Translations under genes and position numbers: made by a program
The notes under the pieces: generated by a model
What the model was told of the DNA's origin: nothing
Databases searched by the model: none
What the model saw: the letters and a program-made list of their open reading frames with translations, nothing else
Shown here: positions 149-58,896 of the stretch, piece by piece
How the letters are laid out: every line of letters starts with the position of its first letter
How positions within the stretch are numbered: position 1 is the first letter of the stretch
Virus record (IMG/VR): IMGVR_UViG_3300047160_002226
Coordinates: 32,001-96,000 of that record
DNA length: 64,000 nucleotides
Direction: 5' to 3' (one strand)
Source of the DNA: a virus

Positions 149-657
149 CCTATCTCTGGGAAGATCGTAAAAGTACATGGGCTCGGATGATAGCGGATGC
201 TTTCTTCCGTGGCCGCGAAGGTGGCGAGCACCTCAAGCCCGCTGACCAGTTCCGTGCTGCCTATCGGTCCTATGCAAAGGAGATGAGCAGGCTCTCTAGT
301 GAGGAACAAAGAGTAATACTCATAATGGCCGAGAAGGAGATCGAGTCAAAAGGCGTCGATATGCTTAGCGGCTATTCTCCAGAGCAGTGGATCGAGGATG
401 AAGAGGAGCAAAAGGCTAACGCTCTTGAAGTCGTCTCTATCTTCAAGGACCTTGTGAAAGGCAAGAAGAACAATGTTCGCAGGCAGTTCGATCTTGCTGT
501 CGCCTATTTTCTAGGACTTACCGACGATATGGACAAAAACAGTCAAGAGTTCAAACGAATCCTCTATTTGCTTGCGCATGACGAAGATGTCCGAGAACTT
601 ATTGCAACCGCAAGACCGTATCTGCTGATTGAAGGCTACAAGGTGGATGATTTCTGA
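145..657 (+). CDS. hypothetical phage protein
   Basis: 170 aa ORF, translationally coupled on both sides, typical codon usage. Confidence 0.75.
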   Translation: MTYLWEDRKSTWARMIADAFFRGREGGEHLKPADQFRAAYRSYAKEMSRLSSEEQRVILIMAEKEIESKGVDMLSGYSPEQWIEDEEEQKANALEVVSIFKDLVKGKKNNVRRQFDLAVAYFLGLTDDMDKNSQEFKRILYLLAHDEDVRELIATARPYLLIEGYKVDDF

Positions 658-1754
658 TGTCTAAGCGAAGTCACAGGAAGAAGAGGCGTAGTCACATGGC
701 GAAGAAGTTGGCAAGCGAGAGTCGAGAACTCGACCTCACGGCCAAGTCGGCTCATGCCTCGACCGTCAAGACGGGACAAAAGATCAAGCTAAAGCCTGGA
801 GCTGGCAAGATCCGTACGCCAGAGGAGCAGGAGCACTGCTTGAGGCACGGGCCAGATGCATTGGAGAGCGTGGAGCCTGAGAAGATGACGGTTGGACAGT
901 TCTTCGATCTTCTGGAGAAGAAGAAAAAGAAGCGCGGCCCGACGAATGTGCTCAACAAGGACCCTGCGACGGATCCGACGATTCGTCAGGTGAACCCAGA
1001 GCTTGTTGATCCAGCTCAGCAAGCAGCGCAGAACGCGGCTGCGGGGCCTCAGACAGCGCCGCAGCAGGGCGCACAGCTCGACCCTACCCAGATCGCTCAG
1101 CAGGCTGCTGTAGGCGGTCCTGCGGCCCTTCCTGACACTGCCCAGCTAGACCCTGAGATGAAGCAGCTTGTAGCGCAAGCCATCGCTGCGCAGCTCACAC
1201 AAGGGCAGGGACCAGCTCCAGTCGGTGCAGGTGGTGAAGCTCCACCTCCACAGGACCAGGAGGGCCAGGGACAGGCTCAGGTAGCGCCACAGCAGGGAGG
1301 GGAACAGCCTCCTCAGCAAGAACCATCCGCTCCAGGTCAACCAGGACAGGATCAAGGTCAGCCTGGGATGGAACAGCCAGGGCAAGAGGGACAGCCACAG
1401 CTTGTGGGGCCAGAGATGGTGGGAGAGCTACCACCAACCATGCCGATCAAGTACGACCAGGCTGGAGCCCCTGACAAGTACACGCTGGACGGACATACGG
1501 TCAGGTGGGACGGACGGGAGTACATCCTTTCCTGGGAACCTGAGAAGTATGTCTACCGTCTAGTGGATCCGATGACGATGATCGTCAGGCTTCGTGTGAA
1601 GCCTGAGCAGATCTCTGTGATTCAGCCAGATAAGAGCTTGGCTTCACTATCGAATGAATCGGTAGCAGATTCGATCCCAGGGCTCGCTCATGGCGATAGT
1701 TTGGCGGATCATCTTCGTCTTCTACTGTGGGACGCACCTATTCTGGTTGCTTGA
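657..1754 (+). CDS. Gln/Pro/Gly-rich hypothetical protein, probable head-internal protein
   Basis: 365 aa; basic N-terminus, long Q/P/G low-complexity centre, small beta domain, C-terminal shared 22-aa motif (see findings). Confidence 0.7.
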   Translation: MSKRSHRKKRRSHMAKKLASESRELDLTAKSAHASTVKTGQKIKLKPGAGKIRTPEEQEHCLRHGPDALESVEPEKMTVGQFFDLLEKKKKKRGPTNVLNKDPATDPTIRQVNPELVDPAQQAAQNAAAGPQTAPQQGAQLDPTQIAQQAAVGGPAALPDTAQLDPEMKQLVAQAIAAQLTQGQGPAPVGAGGEAPPPQDQEGQGQAQVAPQQGGEQPPQQEPSAPGQPGQDQGQPGMEQPGQEGQPQLVGPEMVGELPPTMPIKYDQAGAPDKYTLDGHTVRWDGREYILSWEPEKYVYRLVDPMTMIVRLRVKPEQISVIQPDKSLASLSNESVADSIPGLAHGDSLADHLRLLLWDAPILVA

Positions 1755-1772
1755 GGAACAAACAGCCACGCG

Positions 1773-1832
1773 GTACGGATTCTAGGGTACAATTAGAACA
1801 AGTACTAAGTACTTAGGTACAACAACGGGTAC
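1773..1832. promoter_or_regulatory. GTAC-dense intergenic element with a 12-bp palindrome
   Basis: GTAC at 1773, 1787, 1802, 1809, 1817 and 1829; perfect palindrome CTAAGTACTTAG at 1805-1816. The function is inferred, not shown. Confidence 0.5.
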
Positions 1833-1837
1833 TAGAC

Positions 1838-2470
1838 ATGACAGAACGTAGAGATATACAAGAGTTTCTGCATGTACTAGCTCGTGAGGGCTGGGAACAC
1901 TACGGGCGGAAGGCTGTCGATCCGTACACCCTGCAGGGCACTGAGACTCAGCGCCAAGCTAGGGGCAGAGTTCTTGCCACAGGTAAGGAAGCACTCAAGA
2001 TAGCTTCTCAACGAGCAGCTAAGGGTCAACACGTTGACTATCACGATGTCCTTGGGCTAGCATCTCAGCGTGTATACGGGCACGGGATAGGCTACCATTC
2101 GGATCTCCATGGAGATCCTCACGACCATTTCTCTCATGCTGGGTACGAGCCTCACGCTCTAACTGGAGTAGGTGCTGGTCCTAAGATCCCACGTTCAGCT
2201 ACATCTCTCCTTCCATCTGAGAAAGATGCAGCTATCAAAGGACTAAGTGGACTTGCAGCTAATCTAGCTATGCACGATGAGTTCCATTCGCATGACCTCA
2301 TGGTACAGCTAGGGCACGCGCTCGAACGGTATTCGACTTTCAACCCGAAGCCAGGGCTAGATCCAGAGAAGAGGTTGGAAGACGAGATCGGTCATCTTCC
2401 TACTTCTGTCATGCTGGACTTCTATCACAAGTTCAATGACAAATACGGACATCTACGTCCGCACTTTTGA
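1838..2470 (+). CDS. hypothetical His-rich phage protein
   Basis: 210 aa ORF in operon context. Confidence 0.75.
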   Translation: MTERRDIQEFLHVLAREGWEHYGRKAVDPYTLQGTETQRQARGRVLATGKEALKIASQRAAKGQHVDYHDVLGLASQRVYGHGIGYHSDLHGDPHDHFSHAGYEPHALTGVGAGPKIPRSATSLLPSEKDAAIKGLSGLAANLAMHDEFHSHDLMVQLGHALERYSTFNPKPGLDPEKRLEDEIGHLPTSVMLDFYHKFNDKYGHLRPHF

Positions 2471-2473
2471 ATC

Positions 2474-2941
2474 ATGTCCGTATCTCGTCAAGCCTATTTC
2501 GAGAAGGTGGCTCGAAAGAGGCGCGCAGAACAGAGGATCGTACGACCTCGTAAGAAGCCACCCCCTGATCTGCCTCAGATCCCAGGTCTTCCACCTCGCT
2601 CCACAATAGCTCAGTTCAGTCAACGTTTGCTCTGGCTGAACGAACGAACCCGTACTCGTATCATTAGAGAAGCTGCCGTTCGCCGTCTTAGAATATGGAT
2701 CCTCTATACAAAGATCACTGGAGCAAAGGATACGAAGGCATGGCGCATCGAGCCGTATTCCTATCGAATCAGAAGGATGAAGGCTGGCGGTAGGTACAAG
2801 GTCGGAATTCCGAAGACCTTTTTGTTTGGATACGACCAATTCGGAGAGGGCACGATCAAGATGTTCCTCAAGCAAAACATCCTTGACGTGCTTATGACAC
2901 GATCCACCTACACACCACGATGGCGAGTAGAGATACGCTAA
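2474..2941 (+). CDS. stand-alone WYL-domain protein
   Basis: IWILY...WRIEPYSY...FLFGYD...TIKMFLKQNILDV...YTPRW follows the WYL pattern (I.Y...R.IEPY...YL.A.D...IR.F...RI). Confidence 0.65.
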   Translation: MSVSRQAYFEKVARKRRAEQRIVRPRKKPPPDLPQIPGLPPRSTIAQFSQRLLWLNERTRTRIIREAAVRRLRIWILYTKITGAKDTKAWRIEPYSYRIRRMKAGGRYKVGIPKTFLFGYDQFGEGTIKMFLKQNILDVLMTRSTYTPRWRVEIR

Positions 2942-4116
2942 TGTGTCAAAACAAAGAAGTATGGTTCGTAGACGACCAACCAGACACACCAAGTCTTCTC
3001 GAAGAGCTTTTCAGAGATGAGGGGTACCCTCATTCCTATTACGTTGGGGATGCTACAGCCGCTATTCGTGAACTAGGCAAGGGTCGCCGTCCGTGTATGA
3101 TCGTCGTAGATTGGTACATGCCGCATATGGACGGCCCCGCATTCATCAAGTGGGTCCGTTCTCAGCCTGATGTAGCGCTTGCAGATACTCCTCTTGTTCT
3201 GTTCACGGGGCGAGATGAAGCACATGGCGTTGACGCTGATGTTGTTTTGCGGAAAGGTATGCCATCTGTTGATCGCTTCTTTGATGTTGCTAAGCAACAA
3301 ATCGCTCACCACTATCTAGAACCACCGAAGGGTCAGCGGGCTCTTCCTTTTACTGGCTTTCTCTCTCCTCGTGACTTCCGACGCTGGGAGCATGTCCTTG
3401 TGTCTAGGCCACCTGAGAGGCGCAGAACGCCTCGTGTAGATCCAGAAGATCCCAGACATTGGCCTCAACATCCAGGGCAGATGGATCTCCCATTCAAAGA
3501 TGACCCCAAGCAGATGCACTTTCCAGGTTTCGGAGAGAACATGGATCCTTACGACTACGCAAGAGGACGCTATCTCTTCCTTCTAGAAACAAAGAAAAAG
3601 CCGAAGAAGCCGAAGGTTGGAGTCGGAACGATTGCGTACCATGCTGGTCGTGGTGTCTACCACTCAGCGCAAGCGGCTATCGGCGCTGGCATCTCAGGGG
3701 CCTCTATTGCGTCACTTAATCCAGATACACGTGGGGTATTGCACAAGTTCGCAAGCCGCGTAGCGAACCCAGATGTCAAGGAGCCCGAAGATCCGTCTGC
3801 GTACGGAGCTGAGCACAAGATCCAACATAATACACAGCAGGCTGCGAAGCGCGAGAAGTTCCAGCATGACGTTGAGAAGGTATCAGGCCATCCAGCTATG
3901 GTTCCTGTCCACGTCGCTGCGGCTGGCCTTGGCGCAGAGCACGCACACAAGCACGGCGTTCAGGCTTACGATGCTTTCAAAACAGCCTATCAGGCTGCAA
4001 GGCACCGTTTCGGCAGTGGCCCGCCTCCCGCTGCACCGAAAGCGAAGGTCTCACACCCAACCAAGCCACTCAGCCAGAAGGCCATCTCAGCAGCAGCCAA
4101 GGCAGTTAAGGAGTAA
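2941..4116 (+). CDS. response-regulator receiver (REC) domain fused to a low-complexity/helical region
   Basis: VWFVDD (acidic pocket), IVVDWYMPHMDG (phosphoacceptor Asp), LVLFTG (Thr) and VLRK (Lys). ATG at 2941 overlaps the upstream TAA. Confidence 0.8.
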   Translation: MCQNKEVWFVDDQPDTPSLLEELFRDEGYPHSYYVGDATAAIRELGKGRRPCMIVVDWYMPHMDGPAFIKWVRSQPDVALADTPLVLFTGRDEAHGVDADVVLRKGMPSVDRFFDVAKQQIAHHYLEPPKGQRALPFTGFLSPRDFRRWEHVLVSRPPERRRTPRVDPEDPRHWPQHPGQMDLPFKDDPKQMHFPGFGENMDPYDYARGRYLFLLETKKKPKKPKVGVGTIAYHAGRGVYHSAQAAIGAGISGASIASLNPDTRGVLHKFASRVANPDVKEPEDPSAYGAEHKIQHNTQQAAKREKFQHDVEKVSGHPAMVPVHVAAAGLGAEHAHKHGVQAYDAFKTAYQAARHRFGSGPPPAAPKAKVSHPTKPLSQKAISAAAKAVKE

Positions 4117-17000: not shown

Positions 17001-17416
17001 GCCATAGAAATACAAGAGTCTGCTGCAAGTGTGGTCGGAGGCGGCACGCCTCATTCTTTAGACTTTTTATCAAGTGCATTGATTGCGAAGAGGGACGAGT
17101 CGAACCAGAAAACTTGCAAGTTGATGAGGCTTTCTTTGAACGGCGAACGTTCAACAACTATTTGAAGTGCGTGTATGGCACTAATGTTGAGACTTACGAA
17201 CGATTGCTAGAAGAACAGAACGGTCTTTGCGCTATCTGTAGAAAGCCTGAGCTTGCAAAGAGTCGATTGGCTGTGGACCACGACCATGATACTGGTGAGG
17301 TGCGTGGCCTTCTTTGCGGTAGATGCAATACAGCTATCGGTCTTCTTCGAGAGGACCCAGAAATCATAGATCGCGCCAAATCCTACATTATGGAGCACAA
17401 AGCATGGGCGAGATGA
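16997..17416 (+). CDS. endonuclease VII-family (recombination/homing) endonuclease
   Basis: YG.....YE.LL..QNGLCAIC...LAVDHDHDTGEVRGLLC..CNTAIG. Confidence 0.9.
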   Translation: MSHRNTRVCCKCGRRRHASFFRLFIKCIDCEEGRVEPENLQVDEAFFERRTFNNYLKCVYGTNVETYERLLEEQNGLCAICRKPELAKSRLAVDHDHDTGEVRGLLCGRCNTAIGLLREDPEIIDRAKSYIMEHKAWAR

Positions 17417-46916: not shown

Positions 46917-47284
46917 AGACTGTGAAGAAGAGCAAGAAGAAGACCCACGGGCATGACCACGTGGCAGAAGTACCTATTTCTGCTGACGGATTTGCTAAAG
47001 AGCGAGAGATGGTGATTTCTGACATCTTCTCGCCTTCTGTTCTCTTCATTGGATGTGATAGGTGCAAGAAGAACATTCCGATATTCGTCGGCACAGGTCG
47101 TTTCCGTATCAAAGGCGAGTTGTCAGTTATGTGCCTGTCATGCGGAAATATCACGAAGTTGGAAGGAGAATGGGGTCACAACCTGCAGCGAGAGGTTGCT
47201 GTGCGTGAGCATCTGCGCAACGGCATCACTGCAGACGCGGTCTGTAAGATCCGAGACATCCGCACTACGTTCCTGTTCTCATGA
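46913..47284 (+). CDS. zinc-ribbon protein
   Basis: CDRC...CLSC; ATGA coupling. Confidence 0.6.
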   Translation: MKTVKKSKKKTHGHDHVAEVPISADGFAKEREMVISDIFSPSVLFIGCDRCKKNIPIFVGTGRFRIKGELSVMCLSCGNITKLEGEWGHNLQREVAVREHLRNGITADAVCKIRDIRTTFLFS

Positions 47285-47478
47285 CGCAATCGCCTGATGA
47301 CCTTCTCGCGTACGGGGAAGCGGCTAAGTACGTCGAGATATGCCCTGGCAAGCTCGTCAGAATGGTTAACGAGGGCCTTCTGCCTCATCCCGACGAATTT
47401 ATGCGCTTCAAACGTTCTGATCTGGATAAGTTGAGAGAGAAACTACATGCATCGAGAAGGAATACTGGCGTCTCCTGA
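47281..47478 (+). CDS. small HTH DNA-binding protein (excisionase/MerR-like)
   Basis: LL..GEAAKYVEI....L.RMV.EG.LP...RFKRSDLD. Confidence 0.75.
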   Translation: MTQSPDDLLAYGEAAKYVEICPGKLVRMVNEGLLPHPDEFMRFKRSDLDKLREKLHASRRNTGVS

Positions 47479-53688: not shown

Positions 53689-56610
53689 ATGACGGATCTC
53701 CCTATCCTCAACGACCCCCACTGCACGCGCTGTCACCTTCACCAAGAAGCCACGAACGTCTGCGTCCCGTCGAAGGGCTCAGAGAACCCTGAGATTCTGC
53801 TTGTAGGTATTGGCCCAGGTTACAACGAGGACAAGAAGGGTGAATGCTTCATCGGACCTGCTGGTCAGATGCTCGACTCCATGCTCAAGGAAGCAAACGT
53901 TCCAGTTGAGAAGGTCCGCTTCGCCAATCTGGTTCGATGTGTTCCTTGGCAGAACAAAGCGACGGCTAAAGTACGTGACCCCACCTTTGAAGAGATCCAG
54001 ATCTGTGCTCCATACTTGCTAGCAGAGATCGCAAAGTACAAGCCAAAGGTCATCGTCCCTCTGGGAGCTGTCGTAGCTAACTACTTCAACCCTCAAGCTG
54101 AGGGGCAGCGTATCTCTGCGCTTCGTGGTAAGCCGACGAATTGGAAGCATCCGACTACCAACGACGAATACGCAATCTTGCCGACGTTTCACCCTGCGGC
54201 TGTCTGCCGTGCAGAGCATATGTACCGCAGGCACGTGGTCAACGACTTCCTTTTCGTCAATCAGCTCATCGGCGCGAAGGACGTATTCGAGGGAACTCAT
54301 TACGAGCTGCTGGACACGGAGGAGAAGATCCGTGCCGCAGTAGATCGTATGTTGAGGCTGAACGCGATTGACGAAGACTTCGTCGTGTCAGTTGATACTG
54401 AGACTGGATTCGCTGACAACATTCCAGAGAAGTATCCGCGCACGAGGAAGCAGATACAACTCAACCCGTTCGACCCATTCCACACCCTTGTGTCGGTGCA
54501 GCTTTCATTTGCTCCGAAGCAGGGCTACATCATCCTTCTCCACCACAAGGACTCAACTTTCACTGATACTCTCCAGCATTCGATGATCCGCTTCCACTTG
54601 CAGCGGCTCTTCGACGTGGTGAAGGTTGCAGGTCAGAATTTCAAGTTCGATTACAAGGAATTTCTCGTCAAGCTCGGAGTTGAAGTCAAGCACTTCTACT
54701 TCGACGCCATGCTTGCTCACTTCTTGCGCTACGGCAAGGACGATCCTCGTAGCTTGGAGTCGATTGGAGCCCGCTTCATAGATATGGCGGGTTACAAGAG
54801 CGAGATGGGTAAGGCCCTGGCAACGCTCCCAGAGGAGCGCAGGCACATGGGCTACGTCGATCTTGACAAGCTCATCCGCTACGGCTGTGGTGACTCTGAC
54901 GCTGTAATGCGGTACATGAAGCTCATAAAGCCTGAGCTAGAGGAAATGGGCTTCTGGGGCGTCTACACTGACATCCTTCAACAAGCAACGGTCTCTGCAG
55001 CTATCGTTGAGACCAATGGCATGTTCCTCGACAGGACTCGTCACGAGAAGCTCAAGGAGGAGTTCCCGAAGGAGCTGGCGAAGCTCACTGAGACCATGCG
55101 TAGCAGCGCATGGATCAAGGCATTCGAGCTTGAGTGGGAGACTGAGAAGAAGCAACAGGCGCTCACCGAAGCGATCATCAAGCAGCACCAGACAGGTAAG
55201 CCGAAGAAGCCGAAGACGGTAAAGCCGATCATCTTCAAGCCCAGCTCGTCACGTCACCTCACACGGCTCTTCTTCCAGACTATGAAGCTCCCTACCAAGG
55301 GGCTCAAGAGGACGAAGAGTGGCAAGGGCTACAAAACCGACAAGACCACCCGCGATATCCTGCTCAACTTCTGCAAGGAGCAGAAGAATGAAGAGGGCGC
55401 CAAGCTCATAGCTGCTATCCAGCTATGGAAGATCAAGGACAAGCTCAATTCGGCCTATGTAAAGAACGCACATAAGCTGATCTATGACGACGGCACCTAC
55501 CCGCATAGCATGGGGGAGTTCAAGCCTGAGACGATTGTGCCTTGGTGCTTCCACTCGAACATCAAGCTAGAAGGCACGCATACAGGGCGTCTATCGGTCG
55601 AGCTTCCAAACTTCCAGCAGGTGCCACGCAAGTCTCTTATCAAGTGGATGTTCGTGTCTCGCTATCACGACGTTGGCGGGTTCATGATGCAGGGAGACTA
55701 TTCACAGGCAGAGCTTCGTGTGCTCGCGATGCTTGCTGGTGAGACCTCCATGCTCGAAGCCTTTGGTAAGGGCGACGACATACATATGTATGTCGCTTCC
55801 ATGGTGTTCGGAAAGCATGGTAAGCCTCTGGAGCGATCTCAGATCACCAAGGCAATGCGTTCGATTGCGAAGTCGGCTTCGTTCGGCATCGTCTACGGCA
55901 TGGGAGCCCCAGCTCTTGCCCTCAAGTTCGGAACGTCTGTTGAAGAGGCTCAACAGATCATTAACACACTCTATTCTGTCTTCCCGAAGCTCCGTCCCTG
56001 GATGGACGCGAAGATACAGGAGTGCCGTGACTATGGGCTCGTTACTAGCCCGATGGGCAGGGTTCGTTTCATCCCTGATATCTGGTTCGTTGGTGACGAC
56101 TCGAAGCACCAAGAACTTGTCCGTGCAGGAGCCGAAAGGCGTGCCGTCAATACTCCAATCCAGAGTGCCGCGTCAGACTGGAATCTCTGCGCCCTGAACG
56201 CAATCGTACCGCGAACTCGTGGTATGAAGTCTCTCCCCGTTGCGACGATTCACGACGCGATCATGTTCGATGTGCATCCCATGGAGTTCTTCACTGTGCT
56301 GCACGTCATGAAGGAAGAAATGATGCCGAACCTCCAGAAGAGGTTCGACTGGATCACGCTCACGCCCAAGGCCGATTTCGAGTTTGGCGAAAACTGGCAG
56401 GCGATGACGGACTTCGAGGAAGAAGCCCCAGGCATCTTCAAGATCAAGGGTCCTCCCAAGGATCTAAAGCTCAACCTTGAGCACATACATGAGAAGGGTG
56501 GTCTCGATCTCGAATGGATAGATCAGATCTTTGTGGAGAAGAAGGAAGAGGACTCCTGGTGCAGAGTGAAGCTACAGCTACCCACCTTCGCATCCGCAGC
56601 ACAGAGGTGA
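53689..56610 (+). CDS. polA: family A DNA polymerase with N-terminal family-4 uracil-DNA-glycosylase domain and 3'-5' exonuclease
   Basis: UDG: CTRC, G.GPG..E...G..F.G.AG, HPAA. Exonuclease: VDTET, QNFKFD, YGCGD. Polymerase: TGRLS, DYSQAELR, R..AK...FG..YG, IHDA. Confidence 0.95.
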   Translation: MTDLPILNDPHCTRCHLHQEATNVCVPSKGSENPEILLVGIGPGYNEDKKGECFIGPAGQMLDSMLKEANVPVEKVRFANLVRCVPWQNKATAKVRDPTFEEIQICAPYLLAEIAKYKPKVIVPLGAVVANYFNPQAEGQRISALRGKPTNWKHPTTNDEYAILPTFHPAAVCRAEHMYRRHVVNDFLFVNQLIGAKDVFEGTHYELLDTEEKIRAAVDRMLRLNAIDEDFVVSVDTETGFADNIPEKYPRTRKQIQLNPFDPFHTLVSVQLSFAPKQGYIILLHHKDSTFTDTLQHSMIRFHLQRLFDVVKVAGQNFKFDYKEFLVKLGVEVKHFYFDAMLAHFLRYGKDDPRSLESIGARFIDMAGYKSEMGKALATLPEERRHMGYVDLDKLIRYGCGDSDAVMRYMKLIKPELEEMGFWGVYTDILQQATVSAAIVETNGMFLDRTRHEKLKEEFPKELAKLTETMRSSAWIKAFELEWETEKKQQALTEAIIKQHQTGKPKKPKTVKPIIFKPSSSRHLTRLFFQTMKLPTKGLKRTKSGKGYKTDKTTRDILLNFCKEQKNEEGAKLIAAIQLWKIKDKLNSAYVKNAHKLIYDDGTYPHSMGEFKPETIVPWCFHSNIKLEGTHTGRLSVELPNFQQVPRKSLIKWMFVSRYHDVGGFMMQGDYSQAELRVLAMLAGETSMLEAFGKGDDIHMYVASMVFGKHGKPLERSQITKAMRSIAKSASFGIVYGMGAPALALKFGTSVEEAQQIINTLYSVFPKLRPWMDAKIQECRDYGLVTSPMGRVRFIPDIWFVGDDSKHQELVRAGAERRAVNTPIQSAASDWNLCALNAIVPRTRGMKSLPVATIHDAIMFDVHPMEFFTVLHVMKEEMMPNLQKRFDWITLTPKADFEFGENWQAMTDFEEEAPGIFKIKGPPKDLKLNLEHIHEKGGLDLEWIDQIFVEKKEEDSWCRVKLQLPTFASAAQR

Positions 56611-57374
56611 TGCTCTACAACGAGGATTGGCTCAATGGATTCCGTCGCTTCACTGAGGCGACTGACGTGGTTGTAACCTCACCCCCATACAACTTGGGTG
56701 TGAACTACAACACCTACGATGACGACATTCCACGTGATGCCTATTTGCGCTGGACAGAGCGATGGATTGCTGCTGTAGCTTTCGTACTCAAGAAGGATGG
56801 CTCCTTCTTCCTCAACATGGGCGGGAAACCGTCCGATATGACAGGCCCGTTCGATGTGCTTGAGGTTGCACGTAAATTCTTCAAGCTCCAGAACGTTATT
56901 CACTGGATCAAGTCGATCAACGTCGATGGTGTGACTCGTGGTCACTGTAAACCAATCAACAGTGATCGGTATCTAACAGATCAACACGAATACATCTTCC
57001 ACTTGACACATAATGGAGATGTTCTCCTCAACAAACTCGCAGTTGGGGTAGAATATGCGGACAAGTCGAACCTGACAAGAGGCTCGCGGGGTAAGAACGG
57101 CGACTGTCGGGATCGAGGTAACACTTGGTTCATCAACTACGCCACAAGGCGGGAGAAGAAGTCTCACCCAACAACGTTTCCCGTCGAACTTCCTGAGTGG
57201 TGCATCAAGCTTCACGGCGTTGACAAGGCGAAGCTAGTTGTAGATCCATTCATGGGAAGCGGAACTACTGCTGTTGCTGGTGTTAGGTTGGGTGTGCCGA
57301 AGGTCGCAGGCTTCGAGATCGACACGCTCTATCACGCTGCTGCTGTCACTGAACTCTGCGGACAACAACTATGA
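56610..57374 (+). CDS. beta-class amino DNA methyltransferase (N4-C likely), M.MjaV-like
   Basis: VVTSPPYN precedes DPFMGSGTT; central GH.KPINSDRYL...HEYIFH...L.KLA.GV.Y.DKSN...RDRGNTWFI.Y resembles my recollection of M.MjaV (GTAC). Confidence 0.88.
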   Translation: MLYNEDWLNGFRRFTEATDVVVTSPPYNLGVNYNTYDDDIPRDAYLRWTERWIAAVAFVLKKDGSFFLNMGGKPSDMTGPFDVLEVARKFFKLQNVIHWIKSINVDGVTRGHCKPINSDRYLTDQHEYIFHLTHNGDVLLNKLAVGVEYADKSNLTRGSRGKNGDCRDRGNTWFINYATRREKKSHPTTFPVELPEWCIKLHGVDKAKLVVDPFMGSGTTAVAGVRLGVPKVAGFEIDTLYHAAAVTELCGQQL

Positions 57375-57885: not shown

Positions 57886-58896
57886 ATGGCTTCCAAACTA
57901 GACCTCAACCTCATCAAGCAGAAGGCCCAAGAGATCGCTCAGCGTGAGAAGGATCGCGCCGAATTCAAGAGCGGCGACCGTGGCCCTGGCCTCTTCCTCA
58001 AGATCCCGAAGGGCATGTTCGAGTTCTATCTCGCTCCTCCGTGGAACAATGAAGGAAAGCTTGCCAAGGAGCTGTACACGCACTTCTCAGTCGGCCCGAA
58101 CAAGAACGTGGTTGAGTGCGTTCAGCTCTCTTACCCGCAGCTCGGACTCAAGTGCGAGGTTCATGAGATCATCGACCAGGCGAAGGACAAGGTCAACCTG
58201 CAGCGCCAGCGTGCAGCGTTTACTCCTCGCGTGAACATCTATCTTCCCGACTCTGATACGAATCGTGCTAACGCCGATCTCGTCAAGGAGGCACAGCAGC
58301 TTGGTCGCTTGATGATCCTCCAGCTCACAGGTGGAGCGTGGAACCAAGTCATCAACATCCTCGCGAATCCTCGTGTTGGTGACATCACCGACTTGCACAA
58401 TGCTGTGCCCCTCAGCATCACGAAGACCGTCGCTGGTCCTGAGCCACGAGATACGAAGTATCTCGTCCAGGCGCTTCCGTTCCGTGGCCCTATCCTCGAT
58501 GACAATGCTGCTATCGACGCATTGCTCACGAAGCTGCCAGATCTCGACAAGATCTTCACGCCTCCCGATGATGCAAGGAAGGCGAAGTTCCACCAGATCT
58601 GCCAGGACTTCCGTGCGAGTGTGCTGGAACTTTCGTCACATCCGAGCCTCCAGAACCCATCTCCGACGCCTCCTAGTGGGGCTCCTGCTGATGGTAAGTC
58701 GGTCTCTGCTGTGCAGATGGATGCCCAAGGGAAGCCAGTGTGCTTCTCGAACGCGAATGTCTACAACCCCGCCTCTGCGGTTTGTGGCTCATGCGCGTGG
58801 GAAGCAGCCTGCGTGACGGAGATCAAGGCCAAGGCAGCTCGTGGCGAAGTTGACGAGAAGCCTGCCAAGGCAAAGAAGGCTAAGGCTGCTAAGTGA
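57886..58896 (+). CDS. single-stranded DNA-binding protein (gp32-like)
   Basis: FLKIP.G....PP, H...C...C, GDITD......ITK...DTKY.V, LPDLD; strong RBS; position in the operon. Confidence 0.75.
   Translation: MASKLDLNLIKQKAQEIAQREKDRAEFKSGDRGPGLFLKIPKGMFEFYLAPPWNNEGKLAKELYTHFSVGPNKNVVECVQLSYPQLGLKCEVHEIIDQAKDKVNLQRQRAAFTPRVNIYLPDSDTNRANADLVKEAQQLGRLMILQLTGGAWNQVINILANPRVGDITDLHNAVPLSITKTVAGPEPRDTKYLVQALPFRGPILDDNAAIDALLTKLPDLDKIFTPPDDARKAKFHQICQDFRASVLELSSHPSLQNPSPTPPSGAPADGKSVSAVQMDAQGKPVCFSNANVYNPASAVCGSCAWEAACVTEIKAKAARGEVDEKPAKAKKAKAAK

Follow-up and report, generated by a model that had tools for sequence, protein, structure and literature searches.

A short intergenic gap of a soil myovirus carries six GTAC sites within 60 nt, a cluster without equal elsewhere in the genome. 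Two diverged copies of a bipartite unit, duplicated in frame, make up the cluster, and we tentatively read it as a cis-regulatory array of sites in front of the gene that follows. The same phage encodes a DNA methyltransferase whose target is probably GTAC itself. For a functional link between the cluster and this enzyme, no positive evidence was found, and some of the evidence speaks against the generality of such a link.

The GTAC cluster and its setting

The DNA analysed here (the window) is a stretch of 64,000 nt, bases 32001-96000 of a 116,149-bp IMG/VR record that is rated linear and 79% complete. All of its large ORFs lie on the + strand, and they include a block of structural genes followed by a replication block (Table 1). 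The nearest named capsids, at about 40% identity, belong to the Bacillus phages SP-15 and HSE3 and to the Listeria phage LIS04. Close capsid relatives were found only in two short IMG/VR contigs, L002 (80% identity) and L003 (92%), neither of which extends to the GTAC locus. The stretch around the cluster is present in 24 soil metagenome runs, and the four that were examined gave identical low-depth contigs without variants. Its gene content, capsid matches and occurrence in soil mark the virus as a soil myovirus of the T4 superfamily that has been poorly sampled.

Table 1. Features discussed in the text (positions are those of the window unless stated otherwise).
Feature	Position	Strand	Details
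Upstream gene, 365 aa, without assigned family	657-1754	+	ORF, profile searches
Possible mini-ORF, 21 codons	1751-1816	+	TTG start overlapping upstream TGA (cTTGA); ends at TAG 1814
Intergenic gap, 83 nt	1755-1837		Between two co-directional + strand ORFs; 44.6% G+C; contains all six GTAC
Six GTAC sites	1773-1832		Starts at 1773, 1787, 1802, 1809, 1817, 1829
Repeat unit A: AGG-GTACAA-TTAGAACAA-GTACTA	1784-1807	+	GTAC nos. 2 and 3, starts 15 nt apart
TACAAT hexamer in unit A	1788-1793		Resembles a -10 hexamer
Perfect palindrome CTAAGTACTTAG, 12 bp	1805-1816		At the junction of units A and B; GTAC no. 4
LexA-like site AGTACTTAGGTACA	1808-1821		GTAC-N4-GTAC, A before first GTAC; 12/14 positions against the cyanobacterial LexA consensus AGTACWNWTGTACT
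Repeat unit B: TAG-GTACAA-CAACGG-GTACTA	1814-1834	+	GTAC nos. 5 and 6, starts 12 nt apart
Downstream gene, 210 aa, His-rich, without assigned family	1838-2470	+	Start confirmed by alignment to its sole homologue, P0001
Receiver-domain gene	2920-4116	+	PF00072
gp23-like major head protein, prohead protease, tail sheath, tape measure, baseplate	~14-47 kb	+	PHROG matches
HNH-endonuclease-like motif	~17150-17320	+	Seen by eye
Unlisted 64-codon ORF	47281-47475	+	HTH_17
Replication block: helicases, primase, DNA polymerase, UvsX-like recombinase, nucleases	48-63 kb	+	PHROG matches
DNA polymerase gene	53689-56610	+	Stop overlaps methylase start by one base (TGATG)
Orphan beta-class DNA methyltransferase, M.MjaV/M.RsaI-like, probably GTAC m4C	56610-57374	+	PF01555
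tRNA-Leu(TAG)	108226-108300 (record)		Outside the window
tRNA-Val(TAC)	109413-109485 (record)		Outside the window

A first-pass annotation, made from the sequence of the window, had reported six GTAC sites in 60 bp of this gap together with a palindrome at 1805-1816. Both were reproduced, the sites at their claimed starts and the palindrome as a perfect one of 12 bp, where the expected number of GTAC per 60 nt is 0.15 from the genome-wide rate and 0.27 from the base composition of the gap. Equally dense clusters are absent elsewhere: every other 60-nt stretch holds three GTAC at most, in the window as in the entire 116,149-bp record, and none of the other 15 four-base palindromes exceeds four per 60 nt in the window. 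With the gap-composition expectation, the Poisson probability of at least six sites is 4e-7; in 200,000 mononucleotide shuffles of the gap, five GTAC never occurred, and uniform placement of 286 sites in 116 kb produced a six-in-60-nt cluster in 4 of 20,000 trials, all these figures being subject to the caveat that the six sites are not independent, since two pairs of them belong to a diverged 21-24-nt duplication. The gap itself is one of about 30 in the record that measure at least 35 nt, and it lies directly 5′ of a start codon.

Few conventional signals accompany the cluster. Neither a sigma-70 promoter pair nor a terminator was found in the gap; the -10-like hexamers TACAAT and TACAAC overlap GTAC nos. 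2 and 5, and TACAAT has no -35 element. An NtcA-type GTA-N8-TAC is absent, as is any GTAC pair at a 10-nt start spacing, and there is no T4 late promoter in the gap (TATAAATA occurs once in the record). The gap has no motif in common with the other gaps. The predicted RNA fold is not better than that of shuffled sequences (z -0.86) and no Rfam family matches, which makes a structured RNA at the gap unlikely. A core Shine-Dalgarno (SD) sequence is missing before ATG 1838, and by the same rough test it is missing from 37-58% of the phage genes.

Searches for relatives of the locus returned little. Neither the 210-aa nor the 365-aa neighbour protein matched Pfam, PHROGs or NCBIfam, and the ESM Atlas gave no usable match for them. 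Viral contigs contained no relative of the locus when the 210-aa, 365-aa and 398-aa neighbours were used as queries, and they gave no match to an exact 19-nt core of the cluster. Two scans of metagenome contigs gave nothing and then one unrelated locus (L119), and megablast and tblastn searches of GenBank phages gave no match for the locus.

Several other features of the neighbourhood may be recorded here. Three genes downstream of the gap lies a gene whose product combines a receiver domain of the response-regulator type (PF00072, E 3e-10) with some 290 further residues without assigned family; its only homologue is 50% identical. An unlisted 64-codon ORF, which stands at the head of the replication block and whose start overlaps the preceding stop (ATGA), encodes an HTH_17 (excisionase/MerR-like) DNA-binding domain with an E value of 3.8e-7, above the Pfam cut-off. 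This protein is the sole sequence-specific DNA-binding candidate met in the window. Between the head genes and directly ahead of the prohead protease gene, a motif resembling an HNH endonuclease (C-x-x-C ... DHDH ... VRGLLC) may mark a nuclease gene of the homing type or its remnant. In addition, GTCATAG occurs ten times in the record, six times at most 90 nt upstream of predicted starts (e.g., 13017, 14045, 16228, 42977), and several copies follow T-rich sequence. As an indication of a phage-specific promoter word this is weak and not significant after multiple testing, and GTCATAG is absent from the GTAC gap.

Repeat units and reading-frame history

Four of the six GTAC sites belong to two repeat units, A and B, each of which contains GTACAA followed by GTACTA (Table 1). 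The units are joined by AGTACT, which creates the palindrome, and unit B ends 3 nt before the ATG. TRF reported no tandem repeat in the gap. When the units are aligned over 21 positions, they differ by five substitutions and a 3-nt indel. None of the five substitutions falls within the 12 positions of GTACAA and GTACTA, for which P = 0.006 if they were evenly spread, a post hoc value that depends on a single alignment. Unit B sits after an in-frame stop and before the ATG, and coding constraint therefore cannot account for the identity of the hexamers. That the hexamers agree in both units, although one unit is certainly not translated, suggests that GTACAA and GTACTA are under selection as words of DNA or RNA.

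Among 5.8 billion proteins, a single homologue of the downstream protein was found. This homologue, P0001, shows 78% amino-acid identity and is encoded on a 2.8-kb Logan contig. The P0001 gene call extends 22 codons further upstream with no stop. This extension aligns to the gap solely in the frame of the downstream gene, with a score of 39 (reached by 1 of 2000 shuffles) versus 14-15 in the other frames. The alignment runs via QPRG, VQ and EQVL and contains two in-frame indels; a further 27 nt, corresponding to one unit, are absent in P0001. In its read-through, V-Q and E-Q-V-L stand at the matching places, residues that are compatible with one unit having been kept. Judged from the protein residues alone, GTAC would be possible in P0001 only at V-Q and V-L, that is, at no more than two of the six sites, and the first site is excluded by the residues R-G-K found there. 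The start-to-start spacing within a GTAC pair would be 18 nt in P0001, against 15 in unit A and 12 in unit B. P0001 also shows the V-L-x-M arrangement seen where unit B meets the ATG.

In this phage, the corresponding frame of the gap has no in-frame ATG and stops at TAG 1814. It is rich in rare codons, among them TTA, which makes up 1% of Leu codons. Four of the six GTAC are in phase 0 of the downstream-gene frame, which is the rarest phase for GTAC inside phage genes (49 of 255). The possible mini-ORF listed in Table 1 is homologous to the N-terminal extension of the P0001 gene call; it contains GTAC nos. 1-4 and the rare codons TTA, AGG, GTA and CTA, with no SD before its start.

Taken together, the spacing in steps of three, the similarity to P0001 in one frame and the unconserved six-site state point to a coding-type history and a recent duplication. 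One alternative reading is a neutral account of the cluster. An ancestral N-terminal extension, real or only read as such, would have contained Val-Gln (GTA CAA) and Val-Leu (GTA CTA) codon pairs that gave GTAC by chance; a 27-nt in-frame duplication would then have doubled them and added a stop, leaving a remnant without function as DNA. The one-frame alignment with its in-frame indels, the four sites in phase 0, the variation of unit spacing by multiples of three and the lack of a promoter, terminator or RNA signal in the gap are what such a history would leave behind. However, the copy in this phage, with its stop and without an in-frame ATG, is not translated within the gene, and it is rich in rare codons. 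Under neutrality, five substitutions should not all have missed the two hexamers (P = 0.006), GTAC nos. 1 and 4 are not explained by the duplication, and phase 0 is the phase in which phage genes carry GTAC least often. On balance, we consider this neutral account somewhat unlikely.

The orphan methyltransferase and the loss of restriction sites

The first-pass annotation had paired the cluster with a beta-class methyltransferase said to abut the polymerase gene and, in its central region, to resemble M.MjaV closely. The adjacency is real, the ATG of the methylase gene overlapping the TGA of the polymerase gene. The product matches PF01555 (N6_N4_Mtase) with an E value of 5.7e-41 over residues 19-245 of 254. 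Its motifs stand in the beta order, with VVTSPPYN at residues 20-27 (SPPY at 23-26, in place of D/N-P-P-Y) and the AdoMet motif I, DPFMGSGTT, near residue 212. SPPY is a mark of m4C enzymes, and the beta order is typical of them. The family is very large and conserved: over 5,500 proteins were matched at E <= 1e-10, and many of these, from a range of bacterial and archaeal phyla, show 50-59% identity.

The likeness to M.MjaV extends over the full length. The phage enzyme is 51.7% identical over 269 columns, end to end and including the central target-recognition region, to a Methanocaldococcus jannaschii ORF at 1.4708 Mb; it differs from the archaeal enzyme by the absence of an 11-residue loop. 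Three m4C-type PF01555 genes are present in the M. jannaschii genome, at 0.917, 1.153 and 1.471 Mb, and with the products of the other two the phage enzyme aligns only at the N- and C-terminal motifs. We take this genome to be that of M. jannaschii from a 100% match to a 60-aa stretch of TyrRS, for which sister genomes give 87-93%. The three positions fit the locus tags of M.MjaI (MJ0985), M.MjaVI (MJ1200) and M.MjaV (MJ1498), and the ORF at 1.471 Mb is thus presumably M.MjaV, an equation that rests on those tags. M.MjaI, M.MjaVI and M.MjaV mark CTAG, CCGG and GTAC, respectively, all as m4C (PMC11033074). Another GTAC system is that of RsaI, which cuts this word, and its methylase M.RsaI makes m4C (PMC2588503). 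The methylases of the cyanophages Syn19 and ACG-2014j, which are 41-42% identical to the phage enzyme, overlap genes that their depositors annotated as 'R.RsaI endonuclease'. A tblastn search with the Syn19 protein so annotated gave nothing significant in the phage record, and with no RsaI-like gene there, the methylase is classed as an orphan. From these sequence comparisons, its specificity is likely to be GTAC and its product m4C. It thus shares with M.MjaV and M.RsaI the PF01555 fold, the beta motif order and the SPPY catalytic motif, whereas it differs from them in being an orphan, in its coupling to a DNA polymerase gene and in lacking the 11-residue loop.

Phage-encoded orphan methylases are usually regarded as anti-restriction devices. 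GTAC is kept at 286 copies in the record (observed/expected 0.65), whereas more than 20 restriction words are wholly absent from it. Those with zero copies, with the expected number in parentheses, are CCGG (257), GAGCTC (62), CAGCTG (54), CTCGAG (44), CGATCG (40), TTCGAA (36), AGGCCT (36), TGGCCA (35), GACGTC (32) and GTCGAC (31). GGGCCC, GCATGC, ACGCGT, CCGCGG, GTGCAC, CCTAGG, CCTNAGG and GGTNACC are also absent, as are the asymmetric words CTGAAG, ACTGGG and GACTGC. This implies a host, or a host pool, with very many restriction systems. L002 and L003 likewise lack GAGCTC, CAGCTG, CTCGAG and CGATCG; CCGG is present in both (17 and 7 copies), and its loss is therefore specific to the sublineage of this phage. 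The loss of so many restriction sites alongside the retention of GTAC makes anti-restriction the simplest role for the methylase: if unprotected sites are lost and the one site open to methylation is retained, the presence of the enzyme in the phage calls for no other explanation. The contrast between the words lost and the GTAC kept offers a natural test of site loss versus methylation in phage defence.

The first-pass annotation had proposed a further role, in which GTAC methylation gates a switch at the cluster. A regulator, or RNA polymerase at TACAAT/TACAAC, would distinguish methylated DNA from unmethylated DNA that has just entered the cell or been replicated, and downstream expression would thereby be tied to replication. 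There are grounds for the idea. The orphan methylase is probably GTAC-specific and of the m4C type, its gene is translationally coupled to that of the DNA polymerase, and the cluster is the sole dense set of its target sites in the genome; a mechanism based on site density instead of exact spacing would also tolerate variable spacing. By analogy, Dam methylation of GATC provides precedents in the mom region of phage Mu (three GATC, with OxyR), in the -10 GATC of IS10 pIN and in the seven GATC of P1 pac. The gap shares with these Dam-dependent sites a pile-up of the methylase target word in a short non-coding stretch beside a gene start. In those systems, however, a host methylase places m6A, and a protein or a cleavage that responds to methylation is known; here the methylase is encoded by the phage, its mark is probably m4C and no promoter was found in the gap.

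The comparison with other phages did not support the proposed switch. Syn19, ACG-2014j, ACG-2014f and the 595-kb phage LR756511 all carry a homologous methylase, and in none of them do three GTAC follow one another within 12-nt gaps; a reversed control word gave 1, 4, 0 and 8 such triple runs per strand, respectively. Conservation of the cluster together with the methylase, which the first-pass annotation had regarded as a test of its proposal, is thus absent from four other methylase-bearing phages, and P0001 has at most two of the six sites. The gap has no demonstrable promoter, and the anti-restriction role is simpler. A methylation-gated switch is therefore improbable. The same holds for its specific form, in which the phage's own m4C at GTAC, in the -10-like hexamers and the palindrome, would alter the binding of RNA polymerase or of a repressor, and the downstream head-associated genes would be expressed differently according to template methylation. 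To our knowledge, no virus is known to use m4C for regulation, and we know of no m4C-sensitive regulator in any phage. If true, such a system would be the first m4C epigenetic switch in a virus, and GTAC methylation that is read at the cluster would give it wider importance.

Possible functions of the gap

The reading that we tentatively prefer is that of a cis-regulatory site array before the downstream gene, and it is given a slight preference because the conservation of the hexamers was weighed slightly above the signs of coding-type history and duplication. The gap would then be a short cis-acting control element, with GTAC-core sites of two types (GGTACAA and RGTACTA) and the junction palindrome. 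A sequence-specific factor would probably bind the array and thereby set the expression of the downstream gene or genes, one unit having presumably become two by the in-frame 27-nt duplication in this lineage. Candidate binders may be a phage regulator, e.g., the HTH_17 protein, or a host repressor with a GTAC-type box, which might act at a weak promoter, activator-type or -10-only (TACAAT of unit A), or on the leader. The orphan methylase would probably place m4C on all six sites through a probable genome-wide marking of GTAC against restriction; an effect of methylation at the array may exist as a secondary possibility and not as the purpose of the cluster.

By analogy, the perfect palindrome at the junction has the usual form of a dimer operator, and one of the sites matches a known repressor box at 12 of 14 positions. 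A possible parallel, which serves as a lead only, is found in phAPEC8 (NC_020079), where nine GTAC lie in a divergent intergenic gap (57941-58134, about 195 bp) as a one-off cluster; no PF01555 enzyme was found in this phage. The two cases have in common a one-off dense set of GTAC in a non-coding control region of a large virulent myovirus. However, phAPEC8 is an unrelated phage, its cluster is larger, AT-rich and located between divergent genes with annotated promoters, and any methylase would be of another family. This unique GTAC cluster in a promoter region could be cited in favour of the methylation switch as well. Against the array, the 12/15/18-nt steps resemble insertions or deletions of codons and are ill suited to a rigid dimer site, no promoter, terminator or common motif was found, the six-site state is not conserved and the binder is represented by candidates only. 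The kind of element is already known, and membership in a known family is not established.

The more specific alternatives were weighed against this array. The first-pass annotation had noted a LexA-like operator as another option, and there are real but weak grounds for it. In cyanobacteria, the LexA box is described as RGTACNNNDGTWCB or AGTACWNWTGTACT (PMC3091678). The site in the gap agrees with these cyanobacterial consensus sequences at 13 and 12 of 14 positions, respectively. No site in the record matches better, one intragenic site matches equally well, and no other intergenic site reaches this quality; the site shares with the cyanobacterial box the GTAC-N4-GTAC core, the preceding A and a location shortly ahead of a start codon, the distance of 17-30 nt to the ATG being within the reported range (PMC3091678). 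A host SOS operator of this type, perhaps with neighbouring half-sites, would repress the downstream genes until DNA damage. However, the last base breaks the degenerate pattern, which has no exact match in the record, and no other good box is present in the phage, whether before its repair or recombination genes or elsewhere. Six GTAC in 60 nt make one N4 pair likely by chance, a single box does not require six GTAC, and the five further sites have spacings unsuited to a LexA dimer. The soil source and the nearest capsid relatives, which infect Bacillus or Listeria (at about 40% identity), also speak against it. A LexA-type operator is thus very unlikely, and we judge an RNA-level leader to be just as hard to credit. 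In the latter, repeated GUAC/CAA-rich elements of the 5′ UTR would serve as binding sites for a translational regulator or boost initiation without a Shine-Dalgarno sequence. The missing core SD before the ATG, the 3-nt distance of unit B from it and the V-L-x-M arrangement shared with P0001 are in keeping with such a leader, and single-stranded RNA motifs would tolerate variable spacing more easily. On the other side, many phage genes do without a core SD as well, the RNA fold does not stand out from shuffled sequence and matches no Rfam family, and we know of no GUAC-binding translational regulator.

The packaging (pac) site or replication origin proposed in the first-pass annotation found no support at the gap and is the least probable of all these readings, to the point of being hardly tenable. 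What speaks for it is the analogy with P1 pac and oriC, both rich in GATC, and the fact that the cluster is unique. The terminase search covered one family, Terminase_6N, which had no match in the 79%-complete record. The capsid is gp23-like, and phages of the T4 type package by headful without a defined pac site. At 83 nt and 44.6% G+C, the gap shows neither an AT-rich unwinding tract nor a skew turn, its sites, spaced by 14, 15, 7, 8 and 12, are not helically phased, and the replication genes lie 46 kb away.

Should the cluster prove to be an operator or a duplication relic only, it would be of local interest for the annotation of a poorly sampled soil myovirus. One further detail concerns the codons in which the sites are written. 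The record has just two tRNA genes, for Leu(TAG) and Val(TAC), and the codons they read, CUA and GUA, are those that yield GTAC when they stand as GTA-CTA in the gap frame; in the phage genes, GTA makes up 16% of Val codons and CTA 13% of Leu codons. The match between the two tRNAs and the gap codons is probably a coincidence.
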